Shown one piece after another: positions 6,692 to 64,000 of a stretch of DNA of 64,000 nucleotides (the stretch's first letter is position 1; each line of letters opens with the position of its first letter). The DNA lies in contig LSRY02000015.1 in the NCBI GenBank assembly GCA_001643675.2, forward strand, positions 434,001-498,000. The letters are read 5' to 3'. The stretch comes from Monocercomonoides exilis PA203 (taxonomy: Eukaryota > Protista > Preaxostyla). Position numbers and translations under genes: made by a program. The notes below the pieces were generated by a model that was not told the origin of the DNA, ran no database searches, and saw nothing but the letters and a program-made list of their open reading frames with translations.

Positions 6692-9600
6692 TCAAGTAAT
6701 AGCTTGACCAAAACGACGTTTTGGCACTCCATGCAACGTCTTCAAACCGACTTGTGAAGAAGTTCTTTGCAACTTTTTAGTTGCAACCTGCTGACTCCAC
6801 TGATTTTCGTTCCTTTTCCTCTCATTAATCCTTTTCCGAATGGTATCAACAATCGCCTGTATGTGGAACGAGCGTGTGAGCCACGGCCGCACATCTCTCT
6901 CCTGAGCCAGGAACCGCAGAAATCCCAGCGACTCGATCAGCTCATTGTCATCCTGCTCTCCAAAAAACGACTTTATCACAAACCCGTTTTCGATCTGAAG
7001 CACAAACGCCTGTGGTGAGTTGTCCATCATAATCACCCGGCTGAGGTCTCTGTTCAGCACACGCAGGTCTTTGATGAAGTTGCCGCTGCAGCAGAAGCAC
7101 GCATCGCGGTACAGGCGGTGGTGGATGCGGTGCTTGCCTTGCTCGATGATGTCGAGAAGGGCTGAGGCATATTCCGTCTTGGAGGCGGTGAAGACAATCT
7201 GATTAGACAATGAAAATGAGGATGAGGAGACGAATAAGAAGAAGAAAATTCAGAAAGAAAGAAAGAGATTGAGAGAAAATGAAAAAAAAAAAAAAAAGAG
7301 AGAGAGAGAGAGAAAGAGAAAGAGAGAGAAGTAACAATAAATAACATGTCAATTATTAATCATCATCATACCACTTCATACATCTCCGACACCTCATCCA
7401 GAAACTGCATCAGCCCTGGCCGGAACATCGCGTCAATCAAAAACTGCACTTTGTCTATTGTCACAGAGAACGACGCATCGAACTTCCTTCTGCTTCTCTT
7501 TACTGCCCTGTCGGCTGTTGTGTACTCACAATGCACCAGCGTCTCGTCCAAGTCCAGCACAAGATAGTTTCTGTTCTGCCTTTTAACCACATCCGACGGC
7601 GGAGGTAGGCGCGGCTGCGGGGCAGGGACCATGCTGACATCAGGAAACAGCGCCATTGAGAAGTAGTCGTTGCTCTCGTGCTCTTGCAGCTCAGGAATGG
7701 TCGGGTCGCTTAAATCAGGCATCGGTGGGAACTCGATGTGGAAGTCGTTCCGTGTCACTTCCAATGAATCGAACTCGTCGCTGAAGAGAGGAGTGGAAGA
7801 AGAAGATGATGATGATGATGATGATGAGGCAGAGGCAGATGTTTGTGATGTGAGTGAAGTGGCAGACTTGTCAAATGACAGAGAAGACGCAGAAACAGCA
7901 GGAGAAGCTGGCGGCTGCACCGAAATCGACGGAGCGGCGATCGACGGCGAGTTCACGCTGGACACGACAACTGGGCTCGGAATGCGGGGCACAGGGGAAG
8001 ACGCACGCGACTGCGAAACTTGAGTGATAAAGGAGCTGGGCGACGGCTGGCGGCGCTGCAGAACGGAAGCGTAGTTGCCATTGGTGTTCTCGGCATGTGC
8101 GGTTGATTGAGATGATTGAGATGATTGAGACACTTGCTGCTGCTGCTGTTGTTGTTGCATCTTGCCCTTTGGAAACAGCTTGCTGAAGAGCGATTTTTTC
8201 ATCGTGGTGAATCCGCCTGCTGAAGATGTGTTTGAAGGTGAGAGAGGAGGAGAAAGAACAGAAGATACAGAACTGCTCCGTGTTTGCCTCTGAGGCGTTG
8301 AAACTGCTGCTGCTGCTGCTGATGCAGCAGATGTTGCTGAATTCTGAAGCAAAGATGCCTGTTTTTGTGCATCGACTGCGCTGGATGAGAAAGTGTTTGG
8401 AACAACAGAAGAAGAAGATACCATTGTTTTGTTTTGATTATCCGTTTGTTGCTGTACATTGGAATTTTCTTGAGCAAACGCTTCATCCATCGCACTGCCT
8501 TCTCCTTCGATGTCTTCAATGTCCTCTTCCTCGTCAAATGTGAGCAGCTTGTCGTAGTACTCAAACTGTTTTTCCTCCGAAAGCGCATCCAAATCCTGTT
8601 TAATCAGCGGCACTTTCTTCTTCCTCTGTGGCTGGCTCTGTTGCTGCTGTTGCTGTTGCATCGTCTGCTTCTCAACAGCAGGCACCTCATCTGCCATTGC
8701 ACAGAATGTGGCGCTCTCTTCATCAACAGACAACCGCACAACAGACGGTCTCTTCACCAGCGGCAGTGGCAGAGGCAGAGAAGGAGAAGAAGGAGAAGGA
8801 AGTGAAGGAGAAGCTGGCTCAGACGAAGGCGGTGTGACTGTTGGCAGCTTCGCAGTCTCCTGAGACGAGCGGACGGGGGAGCGGGACGAAGAAGAGCGGC
8901 GAGAGCGCGAGCGACGTGACTTGGGAGATTTTTTGGCTTTTGTCTTTTGCGATTCATTTTGAGTGAAAGGTGGAGGTGACAGTGGAGGTGAAAGAGGTGG
9001 AGAGGATGTTGCTTCGGTTGCTTCGTAAGGAGAGAGAAGAGGAGATAGTACGAGATCTGAACTGCCCGGCTCTTCATCTGAGTACAGCTCGTCCAAACTT
9101 CCGTTAAATTCATCTGGAAGAATAGTTTCTTCAAGGCAGGTTTCTGCCAAAGAGAGGTCTTTTTCCCCTTTAATCGATTTCCGTTTGGCTTCATTACCAT
9201 ATTCTTTGACTTCGTGACTCGAAACAGGTGAAGCCATGTCTTCTTCATCGCTTTTGGATGCAGTTTTCTTTTTTCTTGATCCTGTCTTTTTGCGCTTTGG
9301 CGACGTTTTTGCGCTTGTTGTTATTGCTGGAATTTCTTCATTTGAATCTGGTTGAAGATTTTGTTGAAATGAAGATGGTGAAAATAACCGCTGTGGATTG
9401 AATACTGTCGTATGAACCATGGATGCTGTTTGTTTTTTATCTGTGCTCTTTTTATTTTCAAAGTCTTTTGCTAATTCTTTTTCAACAATATCAAGAGGTA
9501 ATGCAGTATCGGCATCTTCATCACCTGTCTCTTCAATATCTTCATGGAGAAGTGCATTTATTGTTTTCTTTGTTCCTAATTGTTCTGTGGGAGTAGCTCG

Positions 9601-9990
9601 AGATTGAACAAGTTTACTTGTATTTTTTGAATTTTTTGCTCTTGAACGTTTTGTTGAAGCTTTTTGCTTTCTTCCTTTCGTTTTCTTCAATAAAGGTGTA
9701 ACAGAAGGTTGTGGGTAAGACATGATATTAAGTTCAGTCAGCCCGTACTTTTCATATGCAGGATGAGGAAAATATCTTTTGTCCTTCCATTCGCCATCTG
9801 TTTTTGCCTGTGCGCCTGTTTCTGTTGATGCATTGTCTTTATTTGATAATGATGCAAAATCTCGAATTGGAGTAAAATAGTTTGTAATTTTTGGAATATG
9901 GAAAGACGGAGACAAAGGCGAGCTTTCATCACGCTTTTCAAGCTGTTTTCGAGGAGCGCGCACTCGCTTTGTCTTTTTCTTTACTTCCAT
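6692..9990 (-). CDS. SCP/CTDSPL-type (NIF/FCP1-family HAD) phosphatase with long disordered N-terminus
   Basis: LVLDLDETLVH and RPGL..FL in ORF 7366-9990; intron 7199-7371 joins YEV|IVFTAS; second exon has YRDAC, FIKDLRVLNRDLSRVIMMDNSP and DNEL. Confidence 0.92.
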
Positions 9991-10234
9991 AGCAAATAAA
10001 AAGGATTTATCTTTGCACCGTCGTGCAAATGCGAAATGAAAATATAAATGTGATCAGATGCCCATCTTTATTTACATCATTTCCAATGACAGAAGATGTT
10101 TCAAATATTTGATAGAATTCTTTTCATTAAAGTTAACGTTTGATAAAATTCAATAAAAATAATTGGAAATTTTTTTGATTAAATCTTCCTTTATGTGAAA
10201 TGGGATTATTTGAAATGGTGAAATTTTTAAATTA

Positions 10235-12189
<1,955 letters not shown>

Positions 12190-23351: not shown

Positions 23352-24911
23352 CTAAAGCTCGATATCATTCCCCATATTTTTATCTGAATATTCTTTTTGA
23401 AATACAATGATTTCAGCTTCAATCACACATTTGTTGTTTGTTTTCAAAACATTTAATATATGCTTTTTTTCTTCAAAAACAATTCTTCTTCTTAAATTTT
23501 CTTTTTTTTCAGTGATTCCTTATATTTTCATCTCATATTTTTCATTTCATTCATCCCATTCATCATCAAACATTTCTTTTGTAATTTCTTTTCCGAAAAA
23601 GTCGAAACAATGTGTATGCGAAGGAACTTTGATTTGAGAAGAGTTACATAGCATCATATACACTTTCACTGTAGCATTAAAGAAAAAAATACCATTGATA
23701 AAGGCTTATCTGATGACTGATGTTGTGAATGCTGTGTGAAGGGCTTGTGGCAACACATCTGCAACAGCTGTTCTTTTTGAAGATAAGGAGGTGGATGATG
23801 GGGAGCTGATATTGTTTGAAAGCTCCGACTTCAACACTGCAAATACGCCTCTGTCCAGCGGCTGAGATATGTGTGTAGTGTGTGGAACGAAGGTGACGAC
23901 GTCAATTTCGGCTTTTTTGATCAATCTCCATATTGTTGGATCTGCATGTGATGAGTGTGAGTCAAGGAGAAGAAGGCAACGATGAGATTCAATACGTGTT
24001 CGCTTTATTCTATCAATGACAGCCTGCAGTTGGACTGTAAAAACGTATTTTTTTCCATGACGTTTTGTCCATCCAGCCGTTTGTATTTGGCCAAATATCT
24101 AGCGAATGTGTTAACAGTGTTGTCAGTTCTTTCGGAAGATTTGCGCTCGGCCACAGCACGACAGACGGAAGCGAGAAGCCATCAGCAGCGATTCCAGCAA
24201 CGAGAGTGGTATTCGGCATCCGATCGGCAGTCTTTTTGAACGCAGCTTGTTCATCTGCAGGATGAACAACAACGCCACGTGTTGAAGTTGGAATTCGAAG
24301 CGAAGATCCATCTATATTGAAGATTAATTCCTCTGGATATTTATTTTCATTGAGTAATACTTGTAATTCCGTAAACCACGGCTTAAGGACTTTCTGGCAA
24401 GATGCTGCAAGTCTGTAAATATCAACTTTCTTTGGAATCGATGACTTCAATTCAGGATGACACTTTTTGAAGGTGCAAACTGTCTTCGAAGTCACTGTCT
24501 TTTTCTTTTATATCTTCCTCATCGTTGATAAAAACTTCCATCTTAAATACAAATTAATATATACAATTCAAATATCATTTACAAACCAGATCGCGCGCTT
24601 TTCGTAATGTGAAGCTTGTCCCAGATCGGGATTCAATTGTAACAACTTCCAAGTATTGCCTTTCTTTTTCGCCGCTGATAATTGGTGTGCGCCCAACTTT
24701 TGCAATCGGCCTGCCATTTTTTATTGCTTTTACTGCGTGCTCCAAAGATTTTTTTGCTTATTCCACAGTATTTTTCTCCATCGACCAGCCTGACAACATT
24801 ATCATACACAATGTGTGCAATTCTTTCCAATCTTGTCTCATATTTCCTGCGATGCAATGTTGACACTGCTTCCTTCAGCCTCTTTTCCCCAGCTTCTCCT
24901 TTTTGTTTCAC
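23352..24911 (-). pseudogene. Frameshifted pogo-like DDE_1 transposase
   Basis: Fragments IFNIDGSS, GWMDK, LLLLDSHSSHADP and FVPHTTHISQPLDRGVF lie in different frames; 45-nt intron 24542-24586; clear paralogue of 25526-27061. Confidence 0.88.
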
Positions 24912-25153
24912 AGAAATTTTTATTTCTGTTATATGTCTATGATCATTGAAATATATTTTAATTTATTGATTCTCATTTAAGAATTTTTTTATTTATATTT
25001 AAATTTTTGAATGAAGAGGAAAGTTTTATAAACCTTAATGTAGCACAATTTTTCATGAAAGCTCAATGGAAGGACTTGAACCCCTCCATTTACCCCCATG
25101 AGAAATTGGATTTCTTTCAAAATTCAAATATTGGAAAACTTCACATTTGAATA

Positions 25154-27141
25154 GGGTTATAATATTATCTCGACCTTTTTTTTAATAAATCATTAACTTT
25201 TCCCACAATTTCATATTTTTAAAGATTTTTAAGTATATATATGAATTCAATAGATAAAAATAAATACATTTTGAAACAAACCCAATTTCGCATGGGGGGG
25301 GAGATGGGGGGGTTTAGCCCCTTCATTGAACTTCTGTGTGGAATTGGAGGGTTGCATGGGGCATAAAACCTTCAGTTTGTTTAAAATGTTATTTTTCGAT
25401 TATTTTTTCATTTCATTTCAATTAAAAAAATAAAAAATTATTATGATCTTAAAAATATTATTAAAAAAATGAAAATATAAACAGAAATAGAATTAAAAGA
25501 AGGTCAGAAAAAATTACAGAGAGTAATGTCTTCGCGCAAGTACAGGAATTATCACAGTCGGCTGGAGCGAATGGCTCACATCGTTGTTGATGGAGTTGTT
25601 CGTATAACTGATGCTATCAATTCTAAGGAATTTAGTCGCACTGGAATAAAAAATGCAGTTAGAGCGCTGAGAAAAGGTAGGCTGGTTGGAAAAATTGGCA
25701 GACCTACAGCAGTGGTGGGCGAAAAGGAACAAAGAGTAATGGACATTATTCACATTGAAGTAAAGTCTGGAACATGTTTAACTTTGAAAAAAACAAGAGA
25801 ATGGGTTTGTTTAATTTTTATTTATATGTTTTAATCATTTGTTTTTCAGATAGAAAATGTTATAAACGACTACGATGACGAAGACGCACCATTTTCCGAA
25901 GTTTCAATGTCTGCAACTTTCGGCTTTGTCAAGCTTCATCCTGAGCTGATGACTGGAACACCGAAGAATCTGGACATTAACAGACTGGCTGTTTCGTGCA
26001 GAAGTGTTTTAAAACCCTGGTACAAAACACTTGACGAGCTGCACGAAAAATACCATTACAACCCAGCTTTAATAATAAACATTGACGAATCTTTAACGCG
26101 CGTTCCCACAGACTCAAAACGGCTTGTAGTGCATACAGCAGATACAAAAGCAGGTTTCACGAAAGAAACACCGAGGATGATCAATTCCACATTCGTAGCA
26201 GCTGTTGCAGCGGACGGATATGCCTTTCCTTCTGTCATTTTGTGGCCAAGCGTCAACCTGCCAGATGAGCTGAAATGCCTGTTATCTCCAACGCTTGAGA
26301 TATGGGTAAATGGAAGCGGCTGGATGGATAACGAGTGCTTTAAAATGTATGCTCTCACCGTTCTTCCACCTTCTATCATCGAAAGAAGAAAGCGCATGTC
26401 ACTTGAAAACGAACACATTCTTCTCCTTCTTGATTCGCATGCATCTCGTGCAGATCCATCGATCTGGCGAGAATTCCAAAAACAACAAGTCGACGTTTTA
26501 ACCTTCGTGCCACACAGCACACACATCTGTCAATCACTGGACAGAGAAGTGTTTGCTGTATTCAAATCTGAACTGACAAACAGATTTGAGGCTCCCTCTT
26601 CTTCTTCATCTTCCTCCAAACGAGCTGCAAATTCCGACGTTCTGCCTCAAGCCATCCACACTGCGTTATCTTTTTATGAAATACAGATAGCTTTCGTCTA
26701 CAGTGGTATTCTTCACAATTCTTCTGGGTCAGTTCTTTTGAAACTGCCTGAATCTTCGATTTACCCTCTTCCATCCCGAAGAAATAGATTCAACTTTTAT
26801 GGAAAAGTGATAACAGACGAAAATCTTTTAGAGAAATGTGAAAATCATTTGAAAATGAATATTGAAAGGAAAAATGAAATGGATGAAAAGGAGAAAGATG
26901 AAGTGAAGACTGTTGTGGATGAAAAGAAAAAAATAAAAAGAAAATATCTTCACGTTAAAAACGATGATTCTGACGATGAAAAGAAAGATAATGCATTAAA
27001 TCGAGCTGAAGGAAAAAGGAAAGTTATCAGAAGAATTAATTCTGATTTTGTTTTCTTTTAATCATGTTATTTTTTGAACTTTTAACACTTCATTTTTTTG
27101 GGTCAGAATAAAGAAAAAGGGTCAAGATAAAATAATAACCC
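25154..27141 (+). mobile_element. Full-length pogo/Fot1-like DNA transposon (1,988 bp) with TIRs and TA target duplication
   Basis: Left GGGTTATAATATTATCTCGACCTTTTT versus right (revcomp) GGGTTATTATTTTATCTTGACCCTTTT, 23/27 identical; TA at 25152-25153 and 27142-27143. Confidence 0.88.
25526..27061 (+). CDS. pogo-like DD35D transposase (DDE_1), 2 exons, ~496 aa
   Basis: Exons 25526-25804 and 25850-27061 join in frame across a 45-nt GT-AG intron; motifs GRP, INIDES, GWMD, LLLLDSHASR and PHSTHICQSLD with 35 residues between the last two Asp. Confidence 0.9.
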
Positions 27142-28062
27142 TATATACCAAAAATATATTTTGAAATATCATTTGTGGTACAGATTAATTTTTATTTAAG
27201 AAAAAAGTGCCAATGAAAAGATGACCCTATACAAATGAAATTTTTGAGCAAAGAACAAACATCATCAATTGGATATAAAAAGATATTTGCTTTGCGATTG
27301 TATTTCAAATCATCTTATTTCATTCACAACACTAAAATTTGAATTATTTTTGACGAATTGAATGGAAGTTAATTTTATAATTGTTTCTTTGTTGAAAATT
27401 CGTGAATAAATCGAAATGAATGAAGCTGATTCAAAATAAAAGAAGATTCTGTAAAAAACTCAAAGTGTGAGTGAAAAGTGTAAAGAAGGATTGAATATAT
27501 AAAAATAGTGCTTGAAAAAGCTGGTTGCTGATTATATAAACTCAATAAAACTCAATGGAAGAACATATTATTAACACAAAATATGAAACATTGAATAACA
27601 AATGAACAAAAAATTAAGAGATAAAATGGAAAAGCTAAAACACAAAAGTGAAATATATAAATGGATTTGTGTGATATGAAAATTGCAACAAACACGAATA
27701 ACAATGAAATGGTTGTAAATTTTGTGACAAATTGAAAAAAACCAAAACGTAGTCAAATGCCTAAAATATTAAAACTAACAAACAAAAAATTTGACAATAA
27801 CAAAAAGAATATTAAACAAACTCAAATCTTCAATTCAAAACAAAAGAAAAACACTCAACGTGTGCTCTCTCTTTTTTCAATTAAAATGAATCTAGCAATA
27901 TCACAAATAAAAAGCAAGAAATTAATCATGGTGATTGATGGTGTCAGCCATTCACAAAAAAAAAAATACTCATTTTTCACACTTTTCCTCCACAAAAAAA
28001 TTCATTCCCTATTTTCTGATTTTCAACATTCTCTCTCTGATATGAAAGTTTGAGTCTTCTTT

Positions 28063-31000
28063 TCATTTGACAGTTGTTGTGCTGTTTGTGCACAAAGAAC
28101 CGTTTTCTTCACCATTCCCACTCTCAATCCCACTGTCTGGCTCAAGTGTGATTGCATCAGAAATCGTCATTATCAAGGCGCCTGGTGGAAATCCCTGAAT
28201 GAGCTCTCTTTTCAATCCATTCAATGTTCCTCGACACTGGCTGTTCTGTTCCAGACAACTCTTCACAATGTCCAACTTCGAACTCCCTTTTATAATCTCC
28301 AGTGGGGGTCTTTCTCCATTCACTATCTTCTGCCCAGCCACCTCTGCCTCGTATTCTCCAAACGGGATTTGAAGAGTCAAACATTCCCACAGCATCATCC
28401 CAATCGAGAATGACACCGACTCCTTTGTTGCCCCCATCTTCTTGTTTATCTGCAGCTCTGGCGCCTTCCATCTCAGACACTCTTTTTTGAAACTATCTTC
28501 ATCCTCAAAGGCTGATGAGGGAAGGGAGTCCTCATCATCATCACCACTGGCAGATGTCACAACTGTTGACGAAGAGATGGATGATGAATCTGAATCATCG
28601 TCTGACAATAAGTCTGAATGCATCACAATGCAGATCACCATGTGTTCGGAGAACAATACAATGTGAGGGCTCAGATTGGAAAGAGATTGAAGAGGGTTTT
28701 CCATCTCATCAAATGAATGGAGTGCTCCATTCGCAACCCAGAACAAAATCTGGGCAGCTGTTTGCTCTCTTTCTTTCAAGGAGCCAATTGGCATCTCCTT
28801 TGTCTTATTCAGCCCATGAAGCAGCATGAACAGCGAATCCCTCAAATCCACAATCAGCTTCTCATGAGGAGACGAGCATGCCATTGCATCCACCAGATTC
28901 GACATCGATGATGTGGTTGGGCACAAATCTTCCCCTCGAACAAATGTGGAATCTGAATCAGTTGAACAAGTCGAAGAAATTGATGGTGATGGAGTCTGTT
29001 TTCTAATTTCCTCTTCTTCAACCTTCTCCAATGCCCATTCTGGGATCTTGTCTGAATCTTTCCCCAATATGTATTCGGTAGATCCACTCTCAGAAAGAAG
29101 ATGCTCCGATGACTCCGAATGTTGCATGTTCGTATCATATATTCTCTTCTTCATTCTTTCCTCATTCTTCTTCTCTGCCTCTCTCTCTGCTCTCCTCCAT
29201 TGCTCCTCAGGTGACATCTCCATCGTCACCATCTCAATCAGCTTCGGATCTTTTCTGATATTATCGTTCACAATCTCTCTCAGATCTTCAGCTTCATTCT
29301 TAACCTTCTTCCATCGAACAACAAACAAAATAAATCCAATCAGAACGATCAAAAATAATATTGCCAACACAATAACAATTAACAACCAATACGATTTCCT
29401 TTCTTTCCCTCCTTCAACAATTCTGTCATCTCCATTCACCTTTGGCTCGCTTCTGTTCTTCACAATGAAAGAATCAGTGGATGATGGGTTTTTGACATCC
29501 CCAAAAAGAATGCTCACTCTCACCTCTGCCTCTTCTCCTGCCTCTGTTATCATTTCATTTGGCAGTCTCCCTTCAACTTCTGTCTCAGACACATATCCAC
29601 TCTCATCAAACTCATATTTCTCTATCTGCTTTTCAGCCCCAATCTGCTTCACAACCATGAATGACAAGTTGCACGGGAGAAGCAGCTTCCCTTTGAACAC
29701 AACCTCAACTTCTGCTCCTTCTTCCCTTGTTTCAACACCCTCCAACACTGGAATGAAGAATGAAGATGCTCTTTCAGAAACAATCCCTTCAAGCAGACAT
29801 CCATCATTCAAAAACCACATCGATGAGTCATCTTTCACTCCATCTCCTCCTTTCAAACTGGAAATAGACAGTGAAGCAGAGTCTGAACAGATGATATTTC
29901 TTCTCAATGATGGATATTTTGTATTCACAGGGTTGTTGTTGCTGAAGTTTCCTGCTTCAATCTTCACATTCCCACTCGATATGGATAATCCACCTGAAGA
30001 AGCATTCAAAATTGTCACGTCCTTCATCGCCAATGAAGAATTAGTTGAGTGAACAAGTGATCCATTCCATTCGCATATTTCTTTAAATGCATTATTTCTC
30101 TCGGTTTCACTTTCTTTTGAAAGAACTCCAACAAATCGACACGAATCCATCAAAACATCCTTCGCATTGTTCATCCCCATGATGCTTCCTTTGCTTGACA
30201 GAGAATTACAGTCTGAACAAGAACAGTTGGAAAGAACAATTTGAGCAGAAGTTGAGGAAGCGGAAAGAACAGAAGCTCCTTCTGAATTCCTCGAGCAGTT
30301 CTTGAATGAGGAGCTTCCAACCGAAACACTTCCCGAAGTTGAGCTGACAATCAAAATGATGCAACCTTCAGACAACTTCACTCCATCTGCATCAATTCCA
30401 TTCAGCACAACACTTCCACATTGCCCAATCTCAACAACATTTCTTGTTGATTCAACTTTTTCCAGTTTGAAATTTGTGAATGAGACCTCATCTCCATTTA
30501 GCAGAAATGAATACTTCTTGAAAGAAAGCTTTGATATTGAGCAGTTGTCAACATGCAGAATCCCTTTTGCAACGCTCAGCAAGGTTGAGTTGAGAAAAAC
30601 AACAGGTTGATTATTGTTTGACTCTCCAACAGATGAGAAGTCAACAAATGAAAGAGAAAGCTGGCCACCTGATTCATGAATGATGGAACTGCCTGAATAT
30701 GAAAACGATTGGTCAAAGTTGAATTTCAATCTCTCAAACCGAACTTTCTCTGAAGTTGTGAGAAGACTGCCCTCTTTGCCAGTAATTGTTGAGTTCAGAT
30801 GCACCAAAGCAGTTGAGGGAGACTCAAGTGAGCGGATGATCACATCATGCACATCACATTCCCCATTAATGATCGTCTCCTCCGAGATCAACAGCTGAGA
30901 ATATGATGAAGGAATGGTGTGTTGAACTCCAACATCCAATGAGTGGCATGGAGCATTGAACTCTCCGCATTGCTTGCTGTCTCCGTGGTTGCCTGTTGCT

Positions 31001-34000
31001 GAAGAAACAAATATCGTCTCGCTCTGGTATTTCACAACCCTCAGCAGAAGATCCTCTTCCTCCACAAATGAGTCTGTTGTGGCACCCCACATCGCGAGCT
31101 CCTTCACAAATGGTGTTCTGAAATCCAAAAGGAATTGCTCATCTGCAATTTGTGTTTCAATTGAATGGCATCTCACATACACATCTCTTCCCCTGAACGC
31201 AGAGTTGTCTTTGAATGTGATGTTCGACAGCACAAAGTTCAGAGGCTGCTCAACTGTCGAGGTGCATTCCAGAAACAGCCACCCGCCTCTTCCTGTGGTT
31301 GAGCAGAAGCACTCAGAAATCGTGCAAAATGAGCAGTCAAACTTTCCTCCCTCAATCAACACACAAAACATCCCTCCTCCCTTTCCACATCTCTTTCCGC
31401 CACACTTCTTCATCGTTGTGTTTCGAATCACCATTTTCAATGGCTCATCATCATTGTCATTTCGGATGACGGGAATGTTCTCTGTTGTGTTCTGGGTGAC
31501 TTCTTCGAATGAACTCCACTCAAAAATAATGTTTTGTTCCTCTTCATTATTTTCTCTCCCTGAACTCTTTGATATCCTCAATCCGCTTGCCCCATCAAGC
31601 TCAACATTCTTCATCGACAAGTTCTTAATGTTCATAATAGTCGAAGATAGCACAGAAATAACATCCTTTGAAAAGCTAAGTGATTGCATCGTCACTAATT
31701 CCAATACAACTGTCCCTCCATCTGCCTTTATCAACCCAAAATTAGTAATTTGTCCTCTGCTTTCTTCATTTTTTGTGAATGAGCAGTCTTTCACAGTCAA
31801 TAATCCATTGCTTGATCCAACATAAATCAAATTACTGACTCCACTTGTGAAGGATGATGGAATAACAAAGTCAATCAGTTCAAAATTGGTAATTCCACAA
31901 ATCTTCATTGCTGCTTCTTCTGCTCCTTCAAGTGATGAGAGACATTCCAAAGAGCACATTTCTTCATCATCCGATTTTATTGAAATTCCACTCACATCAA
32001 CACTCCTCTGAAGAATCCCCTTCCCAATAACGCTGATAATCCTTTCGTTTCCCTCAGACAATCTTGTTTGTGAATAATCAATTGATAGACAAGGATAATC
32101 TGAGAATCCGCAAGCACCCATGTCCCTTCCATCGCCTCCAACAAATATCTCTGATCCAAGTGTGCGCCAGAAATAGATAAGTGGAATAGTATTCTCTGTA
32201 TCATTCCCATCAAACCCTCTCATCGAATCCAACGAAATATCAGCCAGATGGTCTGATACAAATGGAAGAGAAGTGTTGGTGATGCTCTTTGTCAAGTTGG
32301 ATGATTCAACAAACAGATCATTTCCATATTGCGCAACATTTGGCTCTTCTGAATCAAAAACAGGAGATGAGATCACAAATGAAGAATAATCATCAATTAA
32401 CTTCAGTGCCATCCCTCCTCCAAAGCCAGTTTTCCCTTCTCCAGCTGGTGCTGTGCATCCTGTAAATGTGCATGAAATAATATTCAATTGGGTATTCCCT
32501 TTCAACTGAGCATTGATAGCACCTCCTCTGCTTTCATCAGCCAAAACAGAACATTCATCAAAATCACATTCTTCAATATTTATTTCTCCATTTGAATTTT
32601 CATCATTGCTGTTGTCAATGCTCACACAGCCTCCACTTCCAGCTGCTCTTTCTATTTTTGTGAAATTGCAGTTCGTCATGTTCAACCATTGCATGTTCAT
32701 CAACTCTGTGTTTGTTGTGCTTCCAGTCAACAAGATCAATGGATTTCCACTCAAAGTGATTGACGAAGCTGAGAATGAATCAATAGCCAAGGTTCCAGAC
32801 TCAACAAATAAGAACAGAATTGTCAATTCTGACAATGGATTTTGAAGAGAAATACAGCAATGAGACAAAGTCAGTTGTGAAGAAGAAGAAATAAAAGTTG
32901 AATGTGAAAGAGATGGAGGAATAGAGAAGATGAGTTTTGATAATTCTGTTTCAACACTTGCTGTTATCATCGCTGAGTTTGATGTTGAACTTGTATCAGA
33001 GACTGTCCAGCCACTTTGCTCATCATTTCCTCGGATTTCATGTTTCTGATTAGTAAATGACAATTCATCACTCATTAAAATCATTCCATTCGCATTCACT
33101 TTCTTTGTTTCTGTTTGACGTGTGAGTGAGTGCTTCAAGGTCAAACAAGGGAATTGGACAATTCCACAATAAGAATGATCATATGCCTCAATGCTGCTCA
33201 CATAAATTTCTTCTGGGGTGGGAAGAAGATAGATGCACAGAGGGATTGCCAAACTCGTGTTTCCATTGTCATATCCTCTCACCTTATCAAAAGAATCCAG
33301 TGAAGCTGTCAATGAAGTAATTTTCCCGCTTCTTGCTGTTGTTTCCAGATCGACTGAGTCAACAAAAATGTCACTTCCCCATTTGGCTCTATTTCCTTCA
33401 AATCCTGATGAAATCAGAAACTCTGCATTTGTGTCTTTCACTTTCAGCCCAATCCCTCCTCCTCTCCCTTGGATGGTCGAGGCATAACAGTTCTTCACAA
33501 CACCTCCATTCATCGTCAAAGAACCAACATTCCCCACTTCAACCATCATCCCTCCTCCAAATTCAGAGGCTTCGCTTCCACAGCCATCAATCGTGCATCC
33601 CTCAAGAGTTATTGAATGTGATCCTTCACTCACACTCATCAGCGATGATCCTGCTGTTGTCCTCACAATGTTGCTGAATGTGCAGTTGTCCAGAGACAAA
33701 GAAATAGATGATCCTTGAGGCAGAGATATCACACTTGTTGTGCTGAATGTTTGCCCCCATCTCACATCTTTCATCTTCAAACTTCCCCCTTCCATCTTCA
33801 CAAGCGAGTTCTGAATGCTCCTCTCTTCTGAATGAGTTTCATCCATCGATATATTCATTCTCTCCAAATTGATCCCTCCAGCCCCTTGAACCTCAAACAA
33901 TCTGCTTCTTCGGTTATTTTCAATTGACGAATTGTGAACCACAGACAGATCGCTCACATTCAATTCCCCTGTTCCAACACAAAACAAATTCAGTCCACTT

Positions 34001-35730
34001 GCCTCAAACTTTGTTTCAATGGCTGAGCCAGATGAAGAAACTCCATTCACAGAGATTGTTTTCTCTCCAATATCAATTCCTTTTCCTTCCATAATTGTTC
34101 CACTCAGCACCTTCATTTCCTCCACGAACCCCACAATCATTTGGGAAAGGCAATGGCTGATTGTGAGGCATGCACAACTTTCATTCAATCCGCAGTAGAA
34201 TGTGTCTTTCGCATTTGTCTGATTTTGAACTGAAGCAACAAATCTGCTTCTTCCTCCTTCATTGGGAAGCCACTCACTTTTATCTCCTCCTGCATAATAT
34301 CTCACTCCTTCTGTTCGTGTTGAATAACAGAAAGCAACTTGAGATTCTATGTTGTTATCGTTCACGTAAATATCGTTACCATAGGGTGCTGTGTTATTAT
34401 GGAAAAAGCAAAACCAAAAAATATTTCCGTTATATCCATTTGTTTGAACACTCAAAGCACCTCCATGGCGAGCTGAATGGCATCTTTGATACAAACAATT
34501 TTTCGCAACAATTCTATCACTGGAATTCCAATTTATAAATCCTCCTCCTCCAGAAGTCAAAGAACTATTCCCACTGCAATTCTCAAAGAAACAATCCAAA
34601 ATACAATCTTTTGTTTCCATTGCTTTTGAATTCCATATTCCAAGTCCACCTGCATCATTTCCAGACCATCCATCTTTGAAAAAACAATTTTCAACAAAAA
34701 CTTGGATTTTCATTCCATCAATTTCTGCTCCTGCACCTCCTCCATCTTTTGATGAAACGCAATAGCACTCAATAAATGTGGAGTGTTTTACAGCGCATTC
34801 AGCAATATTCAATGCATATATTCCTCCACCTCTTTCGGATGTCGCATTGCACTTCACAAATGATGAATTCTCAACTGTTAATGTGGTATTTGTATTGTCA
34901 TGCACATACAACCCTCCACCACATGGAGCAGAACATTCATTCCATTCAGCATTCGTGAAGTGCTGAGATTGGGTTGTGTCCAAATGCTCATTATTTCTTT
35001 TTTTCCAATCCACTCTTTCGTTGTGGAGGAATGTGCAGTTCTTGCAGGAAAATGCAATGGATCCTTCTGTTCCGCTCACAATCCCTCTCTCCAGCACATT
35101 CATCGAACTTTCAACTCGGCAATCTTCCATAATGCTCATTTTCATCATTGACACTTTTCCGATTGGCATTTCATCTGTTTCCATGAATTTCATTGTGATG
35201 TTTGAAAAAGCACTGTTTTTGATTCCTTCAAATGACCCTTCTCCATTTCTCAAAATGCTTCCACTCCCACAAAACACAATGTTCCTCCACTCACTGTTTC
35301 TCACAAGCAACGATGCATCTTCTTCTTCCATCTTCACAAGACTATTCATCATCAACTCACAATTGTTGTTTCGTTTTTCGATGTTCAAAGAAGTGTTTAT
35401 CATTTCGCATGTTCCTTCATTGAAGACAAAATGTTCATCGAAACCTCTTTTTCTCATCAACAGGCAGTCATCAAGGCGCAGGAATGATTTTGCTCCCACA
35501 TCAAATGCCGCATCATCATCTGCCTTTTCCAACATTATTTCCTTCAATTCGACTGACGAGTTATGGATTTTGCAGAACAGTCGAACAACACTTCCCTGCT
35601 CCAAAATATGACTTTCTGACTGAGCAGGAATTTGAAAAATGAGATGTCCATTCCTTTGTGCATCATTTCTATCTGTGCCACAAAATGTGAAACACAAGCA
35701 CTCAGCAAAAACAAAAAGAATCATTATCAT
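28063..35730 (-). CDS. Giant single-pass receptor-like protein (2,555 aa): signal peptide, repetitive beta-helix (pectin-lyase/PMP-like) ectodomain, TM helix, degenerate kinase-like C-terminus
   Basis: Hydrophobic N-terminus; GGGLYV/GGGIY/GGAI and F..C.A repeats; TM YWLLIVIVLAILFLIVLIGFILFVV; kinase subdomain VIII-XI-like LRWKAPEL...SFSIGMMLWECLTLQIPF...GERP; no introns. Confidence 0.85.
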   Translation of the reverse strand: MIMILFVFAECLCFTFCGTDRNDAQRNGHLIFQIPAQSESHILEQGSVVRLFCKIHNSSVELKEIMLEKADDDAAFDVGAKSFLRLDDCLLMRKRGFDEHFVFNEGTCEMINTSLNIEKRNNNCELMMNSLVKMEEEDASLLVRNSEWRNIVFCGSGSILRNGEGSFEGIKNSAFSNITMKFMETDEMPIGKVSMMKMSIMEDCRVESSMNVLERGIVSGTEGSIAFSCKNCTFLHNERVDWKKRNNEHLDTTQSQHFTNAEWNECSAPCGGGLYVHDNTNTTLTVENSSFVKCNATSERGGGIYALNIAECAVKHSTFIECYCVSSKDGGGAGAEIDGMKIQVFVENCFFKDGWSGNDAGGLGIWNSKAMETKDCILDCFFENCSGNSSLTSGGGGFINWNSSDRIVAKNCLYQRCHSARHGGALSVQTNGYNGNIFWFCFFHNNTAPYGNDIYVNDNNIESQVAFCYSTRTEGVRYYAGGDKSEWLPNEGGRSRFVASVQNQTNAKDTFYCGLNESCACLTISHCLSQMIVGFVEEMKVLSGTIMEGKGIDIGEKTISVNGVSSSGSAIETKFEASGLNLFCVGTGELNVSDLSVVHNSSIENNRRSRLFEVQGAGGINLERMNISMDETHSEERSIQNSLVKMEGGSLKMKDVRWGQTFSTTSVISLPQGSSISLSLDNCTFSNIVRTTAGSSLMSVSEGSHSITLEGCTIDGCGSEASEFGGGMMVEVGNVGSLTMNGGVVKNCYASTIQGRGGGIGLKVKDTNAEFLISSGFEGNRAKWGSDIFVDSVDLETTARSGKITSLTASLDSFDKVRGYDNGNTSLAIPLCIYLLPTPEEIYVSSIEAYDHSYCGIVQFPCLTLKHSLTRQTETKKVNANGMILMSDELSFTNQKHEIRGNDEQSGWTVSDTSSTSNSAMITASVETELSKLIFSIPPSLSHSTFISSSSQLTLSHCCISLQNPLSELTILFLFVESGTLAIDSFSASSITLSGNPLILLTGSTTNTELMNMQWLNMTNCNFTKIERAAGSGGCVSIDNSNDENSNGEINIEECDFDECSVLADESRGGAINAQLKGNTQLNIISCTFTGCTAPAGEGKTGFGGGMALKLIDDYSSFVISSPVFDSEEPNVAQYGNDLFVESSNLTKSITNTSLPFVSDHLADISLDSMRGFDGNDTENTIPLIYFWRTLGSEIFVGGDGRDMGACGFSDYPCLSIDYSQTRLSEGNERIISVIGKGILQRSVDVSGISIKSDDEEMCSLECLSSLEGAEEAAMKICGITNFELIDFVIPSSFTSGVSNLIYVGSSNGLLTVKDCSFTKNEESRGQITNFGLIKADGGTVVLELVTMQSLSFSKDVISVLSSTIMNIKNLSMKNVELDGASGLRISKSSGRENNEEEQNIIFEWSSFEEVTQNTTENIPVIRNDNDDEPLKMVIRNTTMKKCGGKRCGKGGGMFCVLIEGGKFDCSFCTISECFCSTTGRGGWLFLECTSTVEQPLNFVLSNITFKDNSAFRGRDVYVRCHSIETQIADEQFLLDFRTPFVKELAMWGATTDSFVEEEDLLLRVVKYQSETIFVSSATGNHGDSKQCGEFNAPCHSLDVGVQHTIPSSYSQLLISEETIINGECDVHDVIIRSLESPSTALVHLNSTITGKEGSLLTTSEKVRFERLKFNFDQSFSYSGSSIIHESGGQLSLSFVDFSSVGESNNNQPVVFLNSTLLSVAKGILHVDNCSISKLSFKKYSFLLNGDEVSFTNFKLEKVESTRNVVEIGQCGSVVLNGIDADGVKLSEGCIILIVSSTSGSVSVGSSSFKNCSRNSEGASVLSASSTSAQIVLSNCSCSDCNSLSSKGSIMGMNNAKDVLMDSCRFVGVLSKESETERNNAFKEICEWNGSLVHSTNSSLAMKDVTILNASSGGLSISSGNVKIEAGNFSNNNPVNTKYPSLRRNIICSDSASLSISSLKGGDGVKDDSSMWFLNDGCLLEGIVSERASSFFIPVLEGVETREEGAEVEVVFKGKLLLPCNLSFMVVKQIGAEKQIEKYEFDESGYVSETEVEGRLPNEMITEAGEEAEVRVSILFGDVKNPSSTDSFIVKNRSEPKVNGDDRIVEGGKERKSYWLLIVIVLAILFLIVLIGFILFVVRWKKVKNEAEDLREIVNDNIRKDPKLIEMVTMEMSPEEQWRRAEREAEKKNEERMKKRIYDTNMQHSESSEHLLSESGSTEYILGKDSDKIPEWALEKVEEEEIRKQTPSPSISSTCSTDSDSTFVRGEDLCPTTSSMSNLVDAMACSSPHEKLIVDLRDSLFMLLHGLNKTKEMPIGSLKEREQTAAQILFWVANGALHSFDEMENPLQSLSNLSPHIVLFSEHMVICIVMHSDLLSDDDSDSSSISSSTVVTSASGDDDEDSLPSSAFEDEDSFKKECLRWKAPELQINKKMGATKESVSFSIGMMLWECLTLQIPFGEYEAEVAGQKIVNGERPPLEIIKGSSKLDIVKSCLEQNSQCRGTLNGLKRELIQGFPPGALIMTISDAITLEPDSGIESGNGEENGSLCTNSTTTVK

Positions 35731-36299
35731 GAGGATAATTATGGTTCATTATTAACCATTATTAATAAAATTCATAGATTATTTTGAACTCTTATCAATA
35801 TTGATTCTTCTTGCTTTTTTTAAATTTGTTAAATCCAATGTTATTCATATTGCTTTGCCTTTTTAATAACATAATCATTTAGCCGAAAAAGATTGAATTT
35901 TTCTTTTTCTTCGCTCTGTAATAACTATGGTTTTATTTTATTCTGCATGAATGAGGAATGTTAACATCTTGATATCATTTCCAACGAAATATTCTTCATG
36001 TGTAATTATCTTTCAATGAAAAGAAGAATAACAATTAAAAAAGATGTTTTCGTTGGAAATATTTAAAAATTAAAAAAATAAAAAAAATGAACAATATTTT
36101 TACAAACTTTAAATGTTCTGAGAGAGGCCTAAATTCGTTTGGGAAGTGAATTTGATTTTCGTCAATAATTCCATCACTTCAAAACCGTCCTTGCTTCAAA
36201 AACTTCATATCGAATTACTTTTTATATATATTTCCCTCATTTCTCTCTTCCTTTTTCTATCATTTCTTCATTCTTTATTTCTGAATCTTCATTATTTCT

Positions 36300-37000
36300 T
36301 CCAAAACTTTTAGTCTTGTATTGCAATTGTCTTCACTTTTTCCATATTTCTTTTTTATTTCTCGAGCTTCATCTTCAAAGCATTCTATATTTCCAAAAAG
36401 AACTTCCGAATCATCAATGGTGCTCTTCCTCAGCTCAGCGCTAATTTTTTCATTTTCACGTTTTCTTCTTCCAATCCTCCTTCATGATTCTTTATTTCTG
36501 ATTGTTTTGAAACAAACTGGAAAACATCTCATTCCGAGCTTTTGTTCTTTTTTCGCAAAATAATCCTTGCTTATAAATGAATACTTTAGAAAGAAAAAGA
36601 TTGGCCAATGGCATTGAATCAAATTCTTCATCACTTTTTCTGAAAGTCAAATATCTCTTGATTCTTTTAACAATAATTTCAAATTTTTTCATCAGGAACG
36701 AAGAACAGATGAATCTATGAAACAATGAAGAAAATATTAAAAAACCTTCAAATTTGTTGGTGCAGCGATTGTTGCCAATGAGCAATTTGTATTTTCATTC
36801 TGTTTTTGGATCACAATCATCTTTAATCATTGCAACCCACTTTTCCAGCAAATTAAGGTTATCTTTGCAAACCACCATTAAAAAGGCACTTGAGTCAGAA
36901 AATTAATCCGTTTCATCTTCAAAGCGCTTTGGGTCTTTCTCAATAAACGTTTTTTGTTCTTAAAACTCCATGAAATTGAACTGTTTTATTTCGAATAAAA
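36300..37000 (-). pseudogene. Possible decayed gene fragment of unknown family
   Basis: Protein-like frame broken by stops (KTFIEKDPKRFEDETD*FSDSSAFLMVVCKDNLNLLEKWVAM...*KYKLLIGNNRC) with one short intron-like GT..AG stretch. Confidence 0.3.
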
Positions 37001-37656
37001 ATTGAGCCTCTATTAGAAAACAAAAAAGGAATATAAAATTCAAAATAAATAAAGACTTTAAAGTCTTTCATGCCTCAAAATCATCCATTTTCTGCTGATA
37101 AAATATATCCGGCAAAGACAAAATAAAACTCTTTAGCATTCAAAGGAGAGCATGCCTAAAATATTTATTTGCGTTTTAGAAGCATTTAAACGTTCATCTG
37201 AGTCATAAGACCGGAAAAAACAGAAAATGTTAAAGGCAGGAATTGAAGTTTAATAATGGGCATGTTGATATTTTCAAAATCAAGTCAGCAGGATGCTTGG
37301 CTTTGTCATTGAAAACTTTGTAGAATTAATTGAACGAAGAAATTCATTCTGAAATATTTCATTTTGAAAACAATATTTCTTAATAATGAATGTGAACTCA
37401 AAAAAATATCAATTTCTCTGTTCATATGATATGTCAAACTGAAATTCTAACATATATGCACCAAAAATAATTGTATTTCGAAAAAAAAATAATTCAAAAT
37501 CAAAAAATAACTCTACAGTTTCAAAAATTAAAAATTCTAATTCTGAACTTATATTTCTGAAATTTTGTCATTTTTTTTTGAAATAGAATTTTTTTTTGGT
37601 GTGTGCATAAATATGATTGAAACTTCATTTTTTCCGAAACCCTTTATGAAAAAATA

Positions 37657-38637
37657 ATGAAAATTGTTTTGTTAACATTTTCCATAACGGGAAATACAGC
37701 ACATGTTGCGGATTCTATTTCAAAAACACTTTCTAAATATGGTCATTCAGTGCAATTGTTTGATGCTGTAAGTTTGGTAAAGTTATTAGGTCTGGCACAA
37801 AAAGTTCCAGAATTGAAGCATCAACCTGCACCAACTGGACATGAAGTCGAAATTTTATCTCTTTTATCTGCAATAAAGGAGGCAGATGCGTTTGGAGTTG
37901 GAAGTTATGTGTTTAATTTCTTTCCAGCTCCAGGAGTTCTTGAATTGTTAGATGATAAATGGATGCCTCCTGAGTTGTTCGAGTCAGTTAAAATGTTTTT
38001 CACATTTACAACACATGGAAGCCTTCCACATCCAGTTGGAGATATTTTAGCAACATGCATCTCAAAGAAAAATCCAGCAATGCTTTATGCAGGGAATATA
38101 AACGTTAGAGTGCCAGAGAATTTCGTTCCGCTTCAACCACATAAGCCATACTACGACATATGGGATCCTGTAGAAATTAAATTAATGGAAGAAAAAATTG
38201 ATAGATTAAGAGTATTTTTATCATTTCCTTCTTCATCTGTTCAATTTACTCATGTTGATAATCCTGATGTAAAACGATATATATCACCTTCAACAATGAT
38301 GGGTGCACCACTTTTGGACAAAGAAAAATGTAAAAAATGTGGTCTTTGCGTTATGAAATGTCCTTATAATCTTATCCAAATATCACCTGATATTGAAGAC
38401 GGATTTCCAGTGTTTCAAAGAGATGGGTGCTATGGATGCGGTCGATGCTTTAATAGTTGCAGACAAGAAGCTATTAACTTTACATTATTCGATTCAAAGA
38501 ACCGTTCTCGTTACTGCGGACCTGTTTTTCCAGGAGAAAAGAGAGCTTTAGATGGAAAGGAAAGTGGGATAGAATATACTCCCATTCCAGACGTTGATAA
38601 TCTCTTAAAACGTATACAATTTGAAGTGAAGCCTTAA
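37657..38637 (+). CDS. EFR1-type flavodoxin-ferredoxin fusion (flavodoxin-like domain plus 2[4Fe-4S] domain)
   Basis: N-terminal FSITGNT flavodoxin loop, F.THG and VPENF; C-terminal CKKCGLCVMKCP and CYGCGRCFNSC..EAI; no introns. Confidence 0.88.
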   Translation: MKIVLLTFSITGNTAHVADSISKTLSKYGHSVQLFDAVSLVKLLGLAQKVPELKHQPAPTGHEVEILSLLSAIKEADAFGVGSYVFNFFPAPGVLELLDDKWMPPELFESVKMFFTFTTHGSLPHPVGDILATCISKKNPAMLYAGNINVRVPENFVPLQPHKPYYDIWDPVEIKLMEEKIDRLRVFLSFPSSSVQFTHVDNPDVKRYISPSTMMGAPLLDKEKCKKCGLCVMKCPYNLIQISPDIEDGFPVFQRDGCYGCGRCFNSCRQEAINFTLFDSKNRSRYCGPVFPGEKRALDGKESGIEYTPIPDVDNLLKRIQFEVKP

Positions 38638-62135: not shown

Positions 62136-64000
62136 TCATCTGTCTGTTGTGCTTATCTGGTTGCTTCCATCTTGTTCTGAGTCTTCGATATATATCACTG
62201 CATCTGACATCGTGAGCATCACCGCTCCTTCTGGAAATCGCTGGATGAACTCGCGCTTCAGACCTTGAAGAGACAGCCGCTTTTCACTCTCTGATGACAG
62301 GCACGACAGAATCATGGGCAACAGCACCGACTCTTCTGCTTCCTTCATGCTTGGCCTCTCTCCATTCACGATCTTCTGCCCTGCCACCTCTGCCTCATAC
62401 TCCCCAAACGGGATTTGAAGGGTCAGACACTCCCACAGCATCATCCCAATCGAGAATGACACCGACTCCTTTGTTGCTCCCATCTTCTTGTTCATCTGCA
62501 GCTCTGGCGCCTTCCACCTCAAACACTCTTTTTTGAAGCTATCTTCATCCTCAAAGGCTGATGAGGGAAGGGAGTCATCGTCATCATTGCCACTGGCAGA
62601 TGTCACAACTGTTGATGACGAGATGGAGGATGAATCTGAGTCATCATCGGACAATAAGTCTGAATGCATCACAATGCAGATCACCATGTGCTCGGAGAAA
62701 AGAACAATGTGAGGGCTCAGATTGGAAAGAGATTGAAGAGGGTTTTCCATCTCATCAATTGAATGGAGTGCGAGATTAGCAACCCAGAACAGGATTTGGG
62801 CAGCTGTCTGCTCTCTTTCCTTCAATGTGCCAATTGCCATCTCTTTTGTCTTATTCAGCCCATGCAGCAGCATGAACAGTGAATCCCTCAAGTCCACAAT
62901 CAGCTTCTCATGAGGAGACGAGCACGCCATTGCATCCACAAGATTCGACATGGATGAAGTTGTTGGGCACAGATCCTCCCCTCGAACAAATGTGGAATCT
63001 GAGTCAGTTGAACATGTTGAAGAAATTGATGGTGATGGAGTCTGTTTTCTTATTTCCTCTTCCTCCTCCTTTTCCAATGCCCAATCAGGAATCTTGTCTG
63101 AATCTCTTCCAAGGATGTATTCTGTTGAACCACTCTCAGAAAGAAGATGCTCTGATGACTCAGAATGTTGCATATTCGTATCATACACCCTCTTCTTCAT
63201 CCTTTCTTCATTCTTCTTCTCTGCCTCCATCTCTGCTCTCCTCCACTGCTCTTCAGGTGACATCTCCATCGTCACCATCTCAATCAGCTTCGGATCCTTT
63301 TTCACTGTGTCATTCACAATCTCTTCCAATTCTTCTGTCCTTCTCTTTTGTTTCCTCCACCGAAGTGTTGAAATTACTGCAACAATTAGAATAAACAAAA
63401 GAACAACAACAAGGATAATAACAATCAACAACCAATACGATTTCCCTTCTTTTCCTCCTTCAACTATCCTTTCATCTCCATCAACCTTGGGCTCGCTTCT
63501 GTTCTTCACAATGAAAGAATCAGTGGATAATTGTTTGTCAACATCTCCAAACAGAATGCTCACTCTCACCTCTGCCTCTTCTCCTGCATCACTTATCATC
63601 TCCCTTGACACCTTCCCTTCAACTTCTGTCTCCGATACATATCCACTCTCATCAAATACAAACTTTTCTATCTGCTTTTCTTCTCCAATCTGCTTTACAA
63701 CCATGAATGACAAGTTGCAAGGCAGCAGCAGCTCCCCTTTGAACGCAATCTCAACTTCTGCTCCTTCTTCCCTTGTTTCAACACACTCCAACACCGGAAT
63801 GAAGAAAGGCGATGCTCTTTCAGAAATAATTCCTTTAATTAGACAACCCTCATTCAATATCCACATCGATGAGTCATCCTTCACTCCATCTCCACCTTTC
63901 AAACTGGAAATGGTCAATGAAGCAGAATCAGAGCAGATGATATTTCTTCTCAATGATGGATATTTTGTATTCACAGGGTTGTTATTGCTGAAGTTTCCTG
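62136..64000 (-). CDS. Second copy of the giant receptor-like pseudokinase gene, 5'-partial
   Basis: Collinear and largely near-identical to the last ~620 aa of 28063-35730; frame continues past the window end. Confidence 0.88.
   Translation of the reverse strand, partial: GNFSNNNPVNTKYPSLRRNIICSDSASLTISSLKGGDGVKDDSSMWILNEGCLIKGIISERASPFFIPVLECVETREEGAEVEIAFKGELLLPCNLSFMVVKQIGEEKQIEKFVFDESGYVSETEVEGKVSREMISDAGEEAEVRVSILFGDVDKQLSTDSFIVKNRSEPKVDGDERIVEGGKEGKSYWLLIVIILVVVLLFILIVAVISTLRWRKQKRRTEELEEIVNDTVKKDPKLIEMVTMEMSPEEQWRRAEMEAEKKNEERMKKRVYDTNMQHSESSEHLLSESGSTEYILGRDSDKIPDWALEKEEEEEIRKQTPSPSISSTCSTDSDSTFVRGEDLCPTTSSMSNLVDAMACSSPHEKLIVDLRDSLFMLLHGLNKTKEMAIGTLKEREQTAAQILFWVANLALHSIDEMENPLQSLSNLSPHIVLFSEHMVICIVMHSDLLSDDDSDSSSISSSTVVTSASGNDDDDSLPSSAFEDEDSFKKECLRWKAPELQMNKKMGATKESVSFSIGMMLWECLTLQIPFGEYEAEVAGQKIVNGERPSMKEAEESVLLPMILSCLSSESEKRLSLQGLKREFIQRFPEGAVMLTMSDAVIYIEDSEQDGSNQISTTDR

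Follow-up and report, generated by a model that had tools for sequence, protein, structure and literature searches.

The window analysed here (the whole stretch of 64,000 nucleotides from Monocercomonoides exilis PA203, contig LSRY02000015.1, positions 434,001 to 498,000) carries on its minus strand a long gene for a putative surface receptor and, cut off by the window edge, a second member of the same family (Table 1). The first-pass annotation had described the region 28063-29400, which comprises the 3'-most 446 codons of this receptor gene, as a receptor-like pseudokinase; the motifs that it quoted were all found in place, on the minus strand and within a single open frame (35745-28063) that carries every motif of the cytoplasmic region (RWKAPE at 28473-28456, SFSIGMMLWE at 28413-28384, IPF at 28368-28360, AGQKI of alphaG at 28338-28324 and GERP at 28317-28306). 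The product of 2,555 residues would have about 2,110 residues outside the cell, a single membrane helix and 417 residues inside. In the database this frame appears as protein P0002, started 70 residues later, and the RNA contigs, which are fragmentary, contain no splice joint in the gene. The cytoplasmic region had also been called almost identical in the second copy (62136-63998), which holds for a 315-residue core (29250-28306, 96% identical) but not for the membrane helix (44%), the first 22 cytoplasmic residues (55%) or the tail after GERP (41%).

Table 1. Features of the receptor gene and its second copy in the window.
Feature	Position	Strand	Basis or remark
Whole gene	28063..35730	-	2,555 codons; Met at 35730 starts a hydrophobic, signal-like N-terminus (by eye)
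Ectodomain	29746..35730	-	five segments of ~340-500 amino acids, four Cys cap motifs between; predicted right-handed beta-helix
Membrane-proximal all-beta domain (sandwich-like), ~118 amino acids	29392..29745	-	model shows strands only
Single membrane helix	29317..29391	-	sequence
Juxtamembrane helices, charged, coiled-coil-like	29128..29316	-	helices, model residues 2-64
Ser/Thr/acidic linker, predicted disordered, where beta1-beta3 and alphaC would be	28912..29124	-	model confidence (pLDDT)
ESSEHLL (Ser-x3-Leu-Leu), candidate phosphorylation-switched dileucine sorting motif	29095..29115	-	sequence; putative function
beta4-beta5 hairpin, predicted sole N-lobe remnant, then shortened hinge	28846..28896	-	model strands 142-147, 154-158
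Kinase C-lobe alphaD-alphaI, no catalytic residues	28150..28845	-	high pLDDT outside the insert
Catalytic-loop position, LSNLSPHIVLF	28651..28683	-	H-R-D-L-K-x-x-N to L-S-N-L-S-P-H-I
DFG position (M-H-S) and Asp/Ser tract replacing the activation segment	28492..28623	-	profile alignment
Candidate docking face: RWKAPE, alphaF, IPF, alphaG, GERP	28306..28473	-	conservation; ILK alphaG alignment
Variable end: alphaH-alphaI and C-terminal tail	28066..28305	-	median identity 33%
Second family member, cut at window edge	62136..64000	-	frame ends at 62136

The loss of catalytic motifs noticed in this one gene extends to the whole family. Among 215 near-complete cores (from 267 proteins, 250 with a profile match, after six unrelated multi-kinase proteins and partial cores were dropped), column counts gave the catalytic His in none, the catalytic Asp and the catalytic Lys in one each and the catalytic-loop Asn in six; the DFG Asp occurs once, as a deletion artefact, and the alphaF Asp, replaced by Val in the receptor gene, also once. 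Structural residues are kept: the APE Glu in 214 of the 215 and the alphaH-alphaI Arg in 207. The marks of an active kinase of the tyrosine kinase (TK) or tyrosine kinase-like (TKL) type are missing nearly throughout (Gly-rich loop, beta3 Lys, HRD Asp, catalytic Asn, DFG Asp and alphaF Asp), while the helices alphaD to alphaI, with their Glu and Arg, are those of a protein-kinase-like fold. Judged from these alignments, the domain is almost certainly catalytically dead.

What remains of the kinase is predicted to be one lobe and a small part of the other. The Pfam family PK_Tyr_Ser-Thr matches at profile positions 163-258 of 258 only (E 3e-6; 27.2 bits, cut-off 23.1), and because the match lies above the cut-off and covers just the last 96 profile positions, it is beyond chance and confined to the C-lobe. 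Sequence matches in the PDB are TKL-type kinases (TNNI3K, ILK, MLT/ZAK and TAK1), with ILK the best match of the C-lobe piece (E 0.002). The AlphaFold2 model, built on a 43-row alignment, has a confident domain at 28911-28150 made of two N-lobe strands and then alphaD onward, the exception being the Asp/Ser insert (the tract itself spans 28617-28492; the predicted local distance difference test score, pLDDT, is low at model residues 247-259); in the linker (29124-28912, model residues 66-136) pLDDT is mostly below 50. Fold searches with this model returned kinases only, at Z 17.5-18.7 to CTR1, BRAF, IGF1R, ILK and TAK1, the best being CTR1 (Z 18.7, root-mean-square deviation [rmsd] 3.4 Å, 190 residues aligned; ILK reached Z 18.1), so that the kinase-like fold whose absence would have spoken against the first-pass annotation is indeed predicted. 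The tightest superpositions (rmsd 2.5-2.9 Å) begin at BRAF 510-511 or TAK1 87, positions which we take to lie just past alphaC. Profile-profile alignment with five intact kinase domains (probability 99.3%) begins at template residue 69, with the beta4-beta5 hairpin, so that nothing pairs with residues 1-68, which hold the Gly loop, Lys and alphaC; it opens a 3-residue gap at the hinge and sets the register at the catalytic-loop and DFG positions given in Table 1. In 188 homologs with an upstream membrane helix the linker is polar and 44-172 amino acids long, with a hydrophobic fraction of 0.14-0.29 versus 0.34-0.40 in the five intact N-lobes; one GxGxxG-like and one VAIK-like string occur among them, each in an unrelated context. 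The beta4-beta5 columns are occupied in 24-29 of 29 divergent members.

On these models and alignments, we consider it very likely that beta1-beta3 and alphaC are absent from the cytoplasmic domain. Since most of the N-lobe is predicted to be missing, beyond the mere loss of motifs, the domain is predicted to be a half kinase with a TKL-type C-lobe rather than an ordinary, point-mutated pseudokinase; the earlier designation is therefore right as to the lost catalytic residues and the retained C-lobe, but not as to the usual two-lobed fold, of which only beta4-beta5 of the N-lobe is predicted. A linker stretch, LLSESGSTEYILG...WALEK, was considered as a decayed Gly loop followed by VAIK and rejected, being modelled with low confidence, unmatched in the profile alignment and absent in Blattamonas, although the rejection is not a strict one. 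Prediction of a half-kinase homodimer scored 0.00, which counts neither way, and the ESM Atlas gave generic kinase clusters only.

The core is under purifying selection. Between the receptor gene and the second copy (Nei-Gojobori; a single gene pair), non-synonymous divergence (dN) is 0.023 and synonymous divergence (dS) 0.453, a dN/dS of 0.05 that also applies to the Asp/Ser tract, and the C-lobe piece 28491-28306 has one non-synonymous and 14 synonymous differences over 62 codons. With dS so high and dN so low, the near-identity of the two copies is not merely due to recent copying. The gene is also represented in RNA (contigs from four runs of one study): contigs match the variable tail without mismatch, and two of these extend into the 3' flank (e.g., 27894-28336). 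In each run, 213-260 contigs that fall over the gene are 95-99% alike and therefore point to paralogs, which suggests that several paralogs are expressed in one culture; because two paralogs share the tail at 96-99% protein identity, the signal belongs to the receptor gene copy or a close sister. The 5' part (34193-35730) has little RNA cover and is uninformative in contig data. Control stretches at 35724-36095 and 36964-37583 are uncovered in all four runs and a spliced joint lies nearby in three of them, so genomic DNA alone does not account for the libraries. The near-neutral, unexpressed gene that would have undermined the first-pass annotation is thus not what was seen.

The spliced joint belongs to a transcript at 36219-36939 (an 82-base skip at 36664-36745, with CT..AC ends indicating the minus strand), 0.5-1.2 kb upstream of the receptor Met, that could represent either an exon upstream of the receptor's or a short gene of its own; the RNA runs contain no contig that joins it to the receptor gene.

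A search with the cytoplasmic part returned 534 proteins of 1,408-4,480 amino acids (E <= 0.001), a number that includes double annotations and is not a gene count. The best 120 of these (118 from M. exilis and two from the window itself) are 72-100% identical over the region; 108 carry Pfam PF07714, and 118 have exactly one strong hydrophobic segment past residue 60. Across 150 random pairs the median identity is 86% in the core (a value inflated by the choice of 120 close homologs ranked by core similarity), 48% in the membrane helix, 53% in the membrane-proximal part, 36% in the tail and 20-26% in the distal ectodomain, in keeping with the proposed gut-protist family that varies in its ectodomains and holds its cytoplasmic module constant. 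A further homolog search gave 384 clusters, of which the best 150 were inspected; its distant tier holds 14 proteins of Blattamonas nauphoetae and 16 from JGI, ENA or Logan (metagenome) and, where these are long enough, they show the membrane-proximal ectodomain and helix of the receptor gene, the juxtamembrane helices not being common to the Blattamonas members. Six unrelated multi-kinase proteins aside, the matches inspected include no intact-kinase relative. In a 38-row tree, one branch sets off all M. exilis members (92/71) and another all Blattamonas members (97/91), which fits separate expansions from an ancestor already truncated; the outgroup consists of five domains of three unrelated proteins, so the tree itself names no ancestor. 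Among the divergent M. exilis members P0207 (MONOS_15528) and P0186 (MONOS_9821), the former branches beside all other M. exilis rows and ties them to the metagenome members. Streblomastix, Paratrimastix and Trimastix are absent among the 30 homologs looked up by name, no search having been aimed at them; an alignment-based homolog search returned three proteins only, and two metagenome contig scans found no loci.

Outside the membrane, Cys cap motifs of the form CG-x3-6-[PA]C at 34194, 33168, 32112 and 30969 divide the ectodomain into five mutually similar segments. The last 636 ectodomain residues were modelled with confidence (pLDDT 87.9) as a right-handed beta-helix followed by an all-beta domain, and a fold search (model residues 85-505, barely touching the all-beta domain) matched the last segment to AlgE6 (Z 28.1, rmsd 2.9 Å, 318 residues aligned) and then to alginate lyases, phage tailspikes and the adhesin PfbA (Z 25.5). 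From the similarity of the repeats and the enrichment of GG[AG][ILVM] we infer that the other four segments are beta-helices too: this pattern occurs 8.9 times per ectodomain versus 0.58 in shuffled sequence (120 proteins). FxxC is likewise enriched (11.9 versus 3.7), FxxN barely so (8.8 versus 6.7), and the ectodomain has 37 N-glycosylation sequons. Four pieces of the ectodomain matched no enzyme family of Pfam above the cut-off, and in the modelled segment conservation is highest at Cys, Trp, Gly, Pro, Phe and Asn, with no acidic or basic residue among them. The outer domains, whose modelled fold comes closest to beta-helices that bind polysaccharides, are probably sugar-binding. Similarity to paralogs changes from segment to segment: P0011 resembles the receptor gene closely in segment 2 (80% identity) and in the sandwich-like domain (81%) but not in segments 3-5 (34-44%), while P0007 shows the reverse; at a threshold of at least 60% identity, 25 of 119 paralogs have just segments 3-5 in common with the receptor gene, 12 have segment 2 and the sandwich but not segments 3-5, and 62 have none. 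Because of this patchwork, recombination between paralogs would appear to shuffle the outer modules.

Between helix and half kinase, [DE]S-x3-LL occurs in the linker of all 120 close homologs, and [DES]S-x3-LL in five of 25 divergent homologs (0.27 expected from shuffles), the pattern having in both cases been chosen after the sequences had been viewed. The motif resembles the class of phosphorylation-dependent dileucine sorting signals. M. exilis has the AP-2 alpha and mu subunits (PMC10703272), an expanded endolysosomal toolkit (PMC6759080) and a diet of bacteria taken up by phagocytosis (PMC12308965). In the C-lobe, AGQKI aligns with the alphaG helix of ILK, which binds parvin through M402/K403 (PMC8933812). 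The tail after GERP comes in discrete versions: it reaches at least 60% identity in only three of 119 homologs (P0003, P0004 and P0008, at 85-99%) and lies near 33% in the rest, and P0008 shares it with the receptor gene though their ectodomains are less than 41% identical.

Taken together, we lean slightly towards reading these proteins as variable receptors for bacteria or glycans on the cell surface, in which a constant, ATP-free docking domain would hold one and the same partner inside the cell and couple binding to uptake or the cytoskeleton. The choice among sensing, adhesion and uptake is one that we infer, and our best guess is that a bacterivore uses them to capture and take up its prey. 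Recombination between paralogs would diversify binding; ligand binding would cluster the receptors; the APE/alphaG face of the C-lobe might then dock a cytoskeletal or trafficking adaptor, as in ILK with parvin or KIND with formins and MAP2; and another kinase, by phosphorylating the Ser-rich linker, could turn on the Ser-x3-Leu-Leu motif for uptake through an adaptor complex. The boldest version of this reading, which we hold to be rather doubtful, is that oxymonads independently evolved a KIND-like half kinase, made it the basis of the largest of their gene families and use hundreds of recombining beta-helix receptors for bacterial glycans, with uptake through the invariant domain and a phospho-switched motif.

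A number of points tell against the receptor reading or limit it. A beta-helix fold is no proof of sugar binding, and identity to the fold matches is 7-12%; the module shuffling is putative; the core's conservation is seen in a set selected for it, and the selection estimate in one pair. Of 120 database proteins, no more than 28 open with a hydrophobic stretch, which the starts chosen in the gene models probably explain, P0002 being an instance. Some of the looser superpositions (rmsd 4-7 Å) lay linker residues of low confidence over strands of the N-lobe, and a linker that is disordered might still fold upon a partner. The dileucine motif is missing from most Blattamonas members. The conserved C-lobe residues are mostly structural, and at the alphaG surface the 29 divergent members differ from one another (Lys in 6, Gln in 13, Arg in 5), which weakens the case for a shared ILK-like docking site. 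Ligand, partner and localisation are putative, and the receptor role is a candidate one.

The same data can be read in other ways. It is somewhat unlikely, though conceivable enough to be taken seriously, that the proteins make up a variant surface coat or adhesin whose half kinase is a mere anchor or sorting tag, with no ligand-triggered event; the tails of Giardia VSPs and the acidic tail of PfEMP1 are analogues. The many copies, patchwork ectodomains, constant acidic tail and N-glycosylation sequons would all suit such a coat, as would the raised adhesion brought about by trichomonad Pmp-like proteins (PMC6701047). However, divergent lineages of the oxymonad type have all retained a folded domain of some 250 residues, which goes beyond the needs of a tag, and the likeness of the RNA contigs suggests that several paralogs are expressed in one culture (a bulk culture, not single cells). 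If instead the outer domains were membrane-tethered lyases or hydrolases for bacterial capsules or gut glycans, the tail would only route them to food vacuoles; epimerases, alginate lyases and tailspike depolymerases are the top structural neighbours, but the failure of Pfam enzyme families, the lack of acidic or basic residues among the best-conserved ones and the similar score of PfbA, a non-enzymatic adhesin, make this quite improbable.

Other readings turn on the half kinase itself. As HER3 and KSR do for their partners, it might act as an allosteric co-receptor that pairs with an intact TKL kinase and switches it on after ligand binding, that kinase perhaps packing against the beta4-beta5 hairpin or completing it; this is unlikely, but the persistence of beta4-beta5 in divergent members and the RAF-type kinases among the nearest folds speak for it, as does the presence in M. 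exilis of at least one gene, MONOS_7647, that is a TKL/DRK-like kinase by annotation. Against it, we found no candidate partner kinase and, as said, no intact-kinase relative among the matches inspected. We regard an active atypical kinase with relocated catalytic residues as hardly credible: an Asp three residues past the DFG-Asp position is present in 179 of 186 close members, but in only five of 29 divergent ones, and the Gly loop, Lys and alphaC are absent and the hinge shortened. The conservation might, finally, be non-functional, with gene conversion homogenising a family of repeats or mobile DNA carrying it. 'Unclassified repeats' do overlap these genes (PMC8767320) and DDE transposase genes adjoin, but the excess of synonymous over non-synonymous change, Asp/Ser tract included, largely refutes this, and the fold persists in other lineages, where identity is 20-35%; we hold this reading to be very improbable.

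The half-kinase receptors are very probably the published 'tyrosine kinase' family of M. exilis, with which they share the organism, the very large family size and PF07714. Protein tyrosine kinases are the largest family of this organism, with 332 genes, 320 of them TKL (Karnkowska et al., 2019, PMC6759080), and overlap unclassified repeats (Treitli et al., 2021, PMC8767320). In the parts available, both papers treat them as kinases, with no receptor architecture, inactivity or truncation described; the word 'pseudokinase' does not occur in PMC6759080, and the available parts of Novak et al. (2023, PMC10703272), supplement included, likewise mention none of the three features. A literature search, with most subscription journals outside its reach, found nothing on oxymonad pseudokinases or loss of the kinase N-lobe. 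The family is real, functional and, in its present form, apparently undescribed.

Among known systems, the KIND domain comes close, being a kinase C-lobe without catalysis or functional N-lobe that binds proteins (the formin FSI peptide and MAP2). However, KIND is found in soluble animal proteins and is said to derive from a PAK-like kinase, whereas the half kinase is TKL-like, keeps beta4-beta5 and sits under a membrane helix in a large family; its origin is probably independent. KIND was not among the Pfam or fold matches listed, all of them kinase families or whole kinases; this excludes nothing, no direct comparison having been made. ILK, PTK7 and ROR2 also use a TKL- or TK-type fold without catalysis as a scaffold, but they keep both lobes and are few-copy genes; ILK in addition still binds ATP (PMC8933812) and has no membrane helix. 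The trichomonad Pmp-like proteins are an expanded metamonad family whose members carry GGA[ILV] repeats, endocytic motifs in the tail and, close to the C-terminus, a single membrane helix (PMC6701047). Our receptors have the repeats (under a looser pattern) and the single helix towards the C-terminus, and lack the FxxN signature; for the Pmp-like proteins no kinase-derived domain is described in the available parts of PMC6701047. In Giardia, too, the kinome is dominated by one expanded and mostly inactive metamonad family, the Neks (139 of 195), but these are soluble, have ankyrin repeats and diverge greatly from one another, and Giardia was concluded to be without receptor kinases (PMC3218828, in part).

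If this reading is right, the largest gene family of the model mitochondrion-less eukaryote would be recast from kinases to non-enzymatic, variable surface receptors, and there would be a second, probably independent, example of a kinase pared down to its C-lobe for binding, in this case in many copies and under strong selection. The family is also a candidate means by which oxymonads tell the bacteria that they feed on or harbour, a matter relevant to the resistance of M. exilis to bacteria-free culture. In its boldest version, the reading would amount to a diversified prey- or symbiont-recognition system in a mitochondrion-less eukaryote that has hitherto been counted among the kinases.

The remainder of the window holds several other genes. 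Directly downstream of the receptor gene, 25481-27061 (plus strand) encodes a DDE_1 transposase of the pogo/Tigger type (E 4e-11), in which an intron near 25805-25850 is likely, given a short frame upstream; a second, similar transposase at 23706-24962 (minus strand) is fragmented into three short frames and lies in the opposite orientation. Motifs recognised by eye lead us to take 2-6262 for a very long ubiquitin-specific protease, 6692-10053 for an FCP/SCP-type phosphatase with DLDET and 10915-11616 for a KRR1-like protein (all on the minus strand). At 37621-38637 (plus strand), a flavodoxin-like domain is fused to two 4Fe-4S motifs, and one long RNA contig covers it in all four runs.

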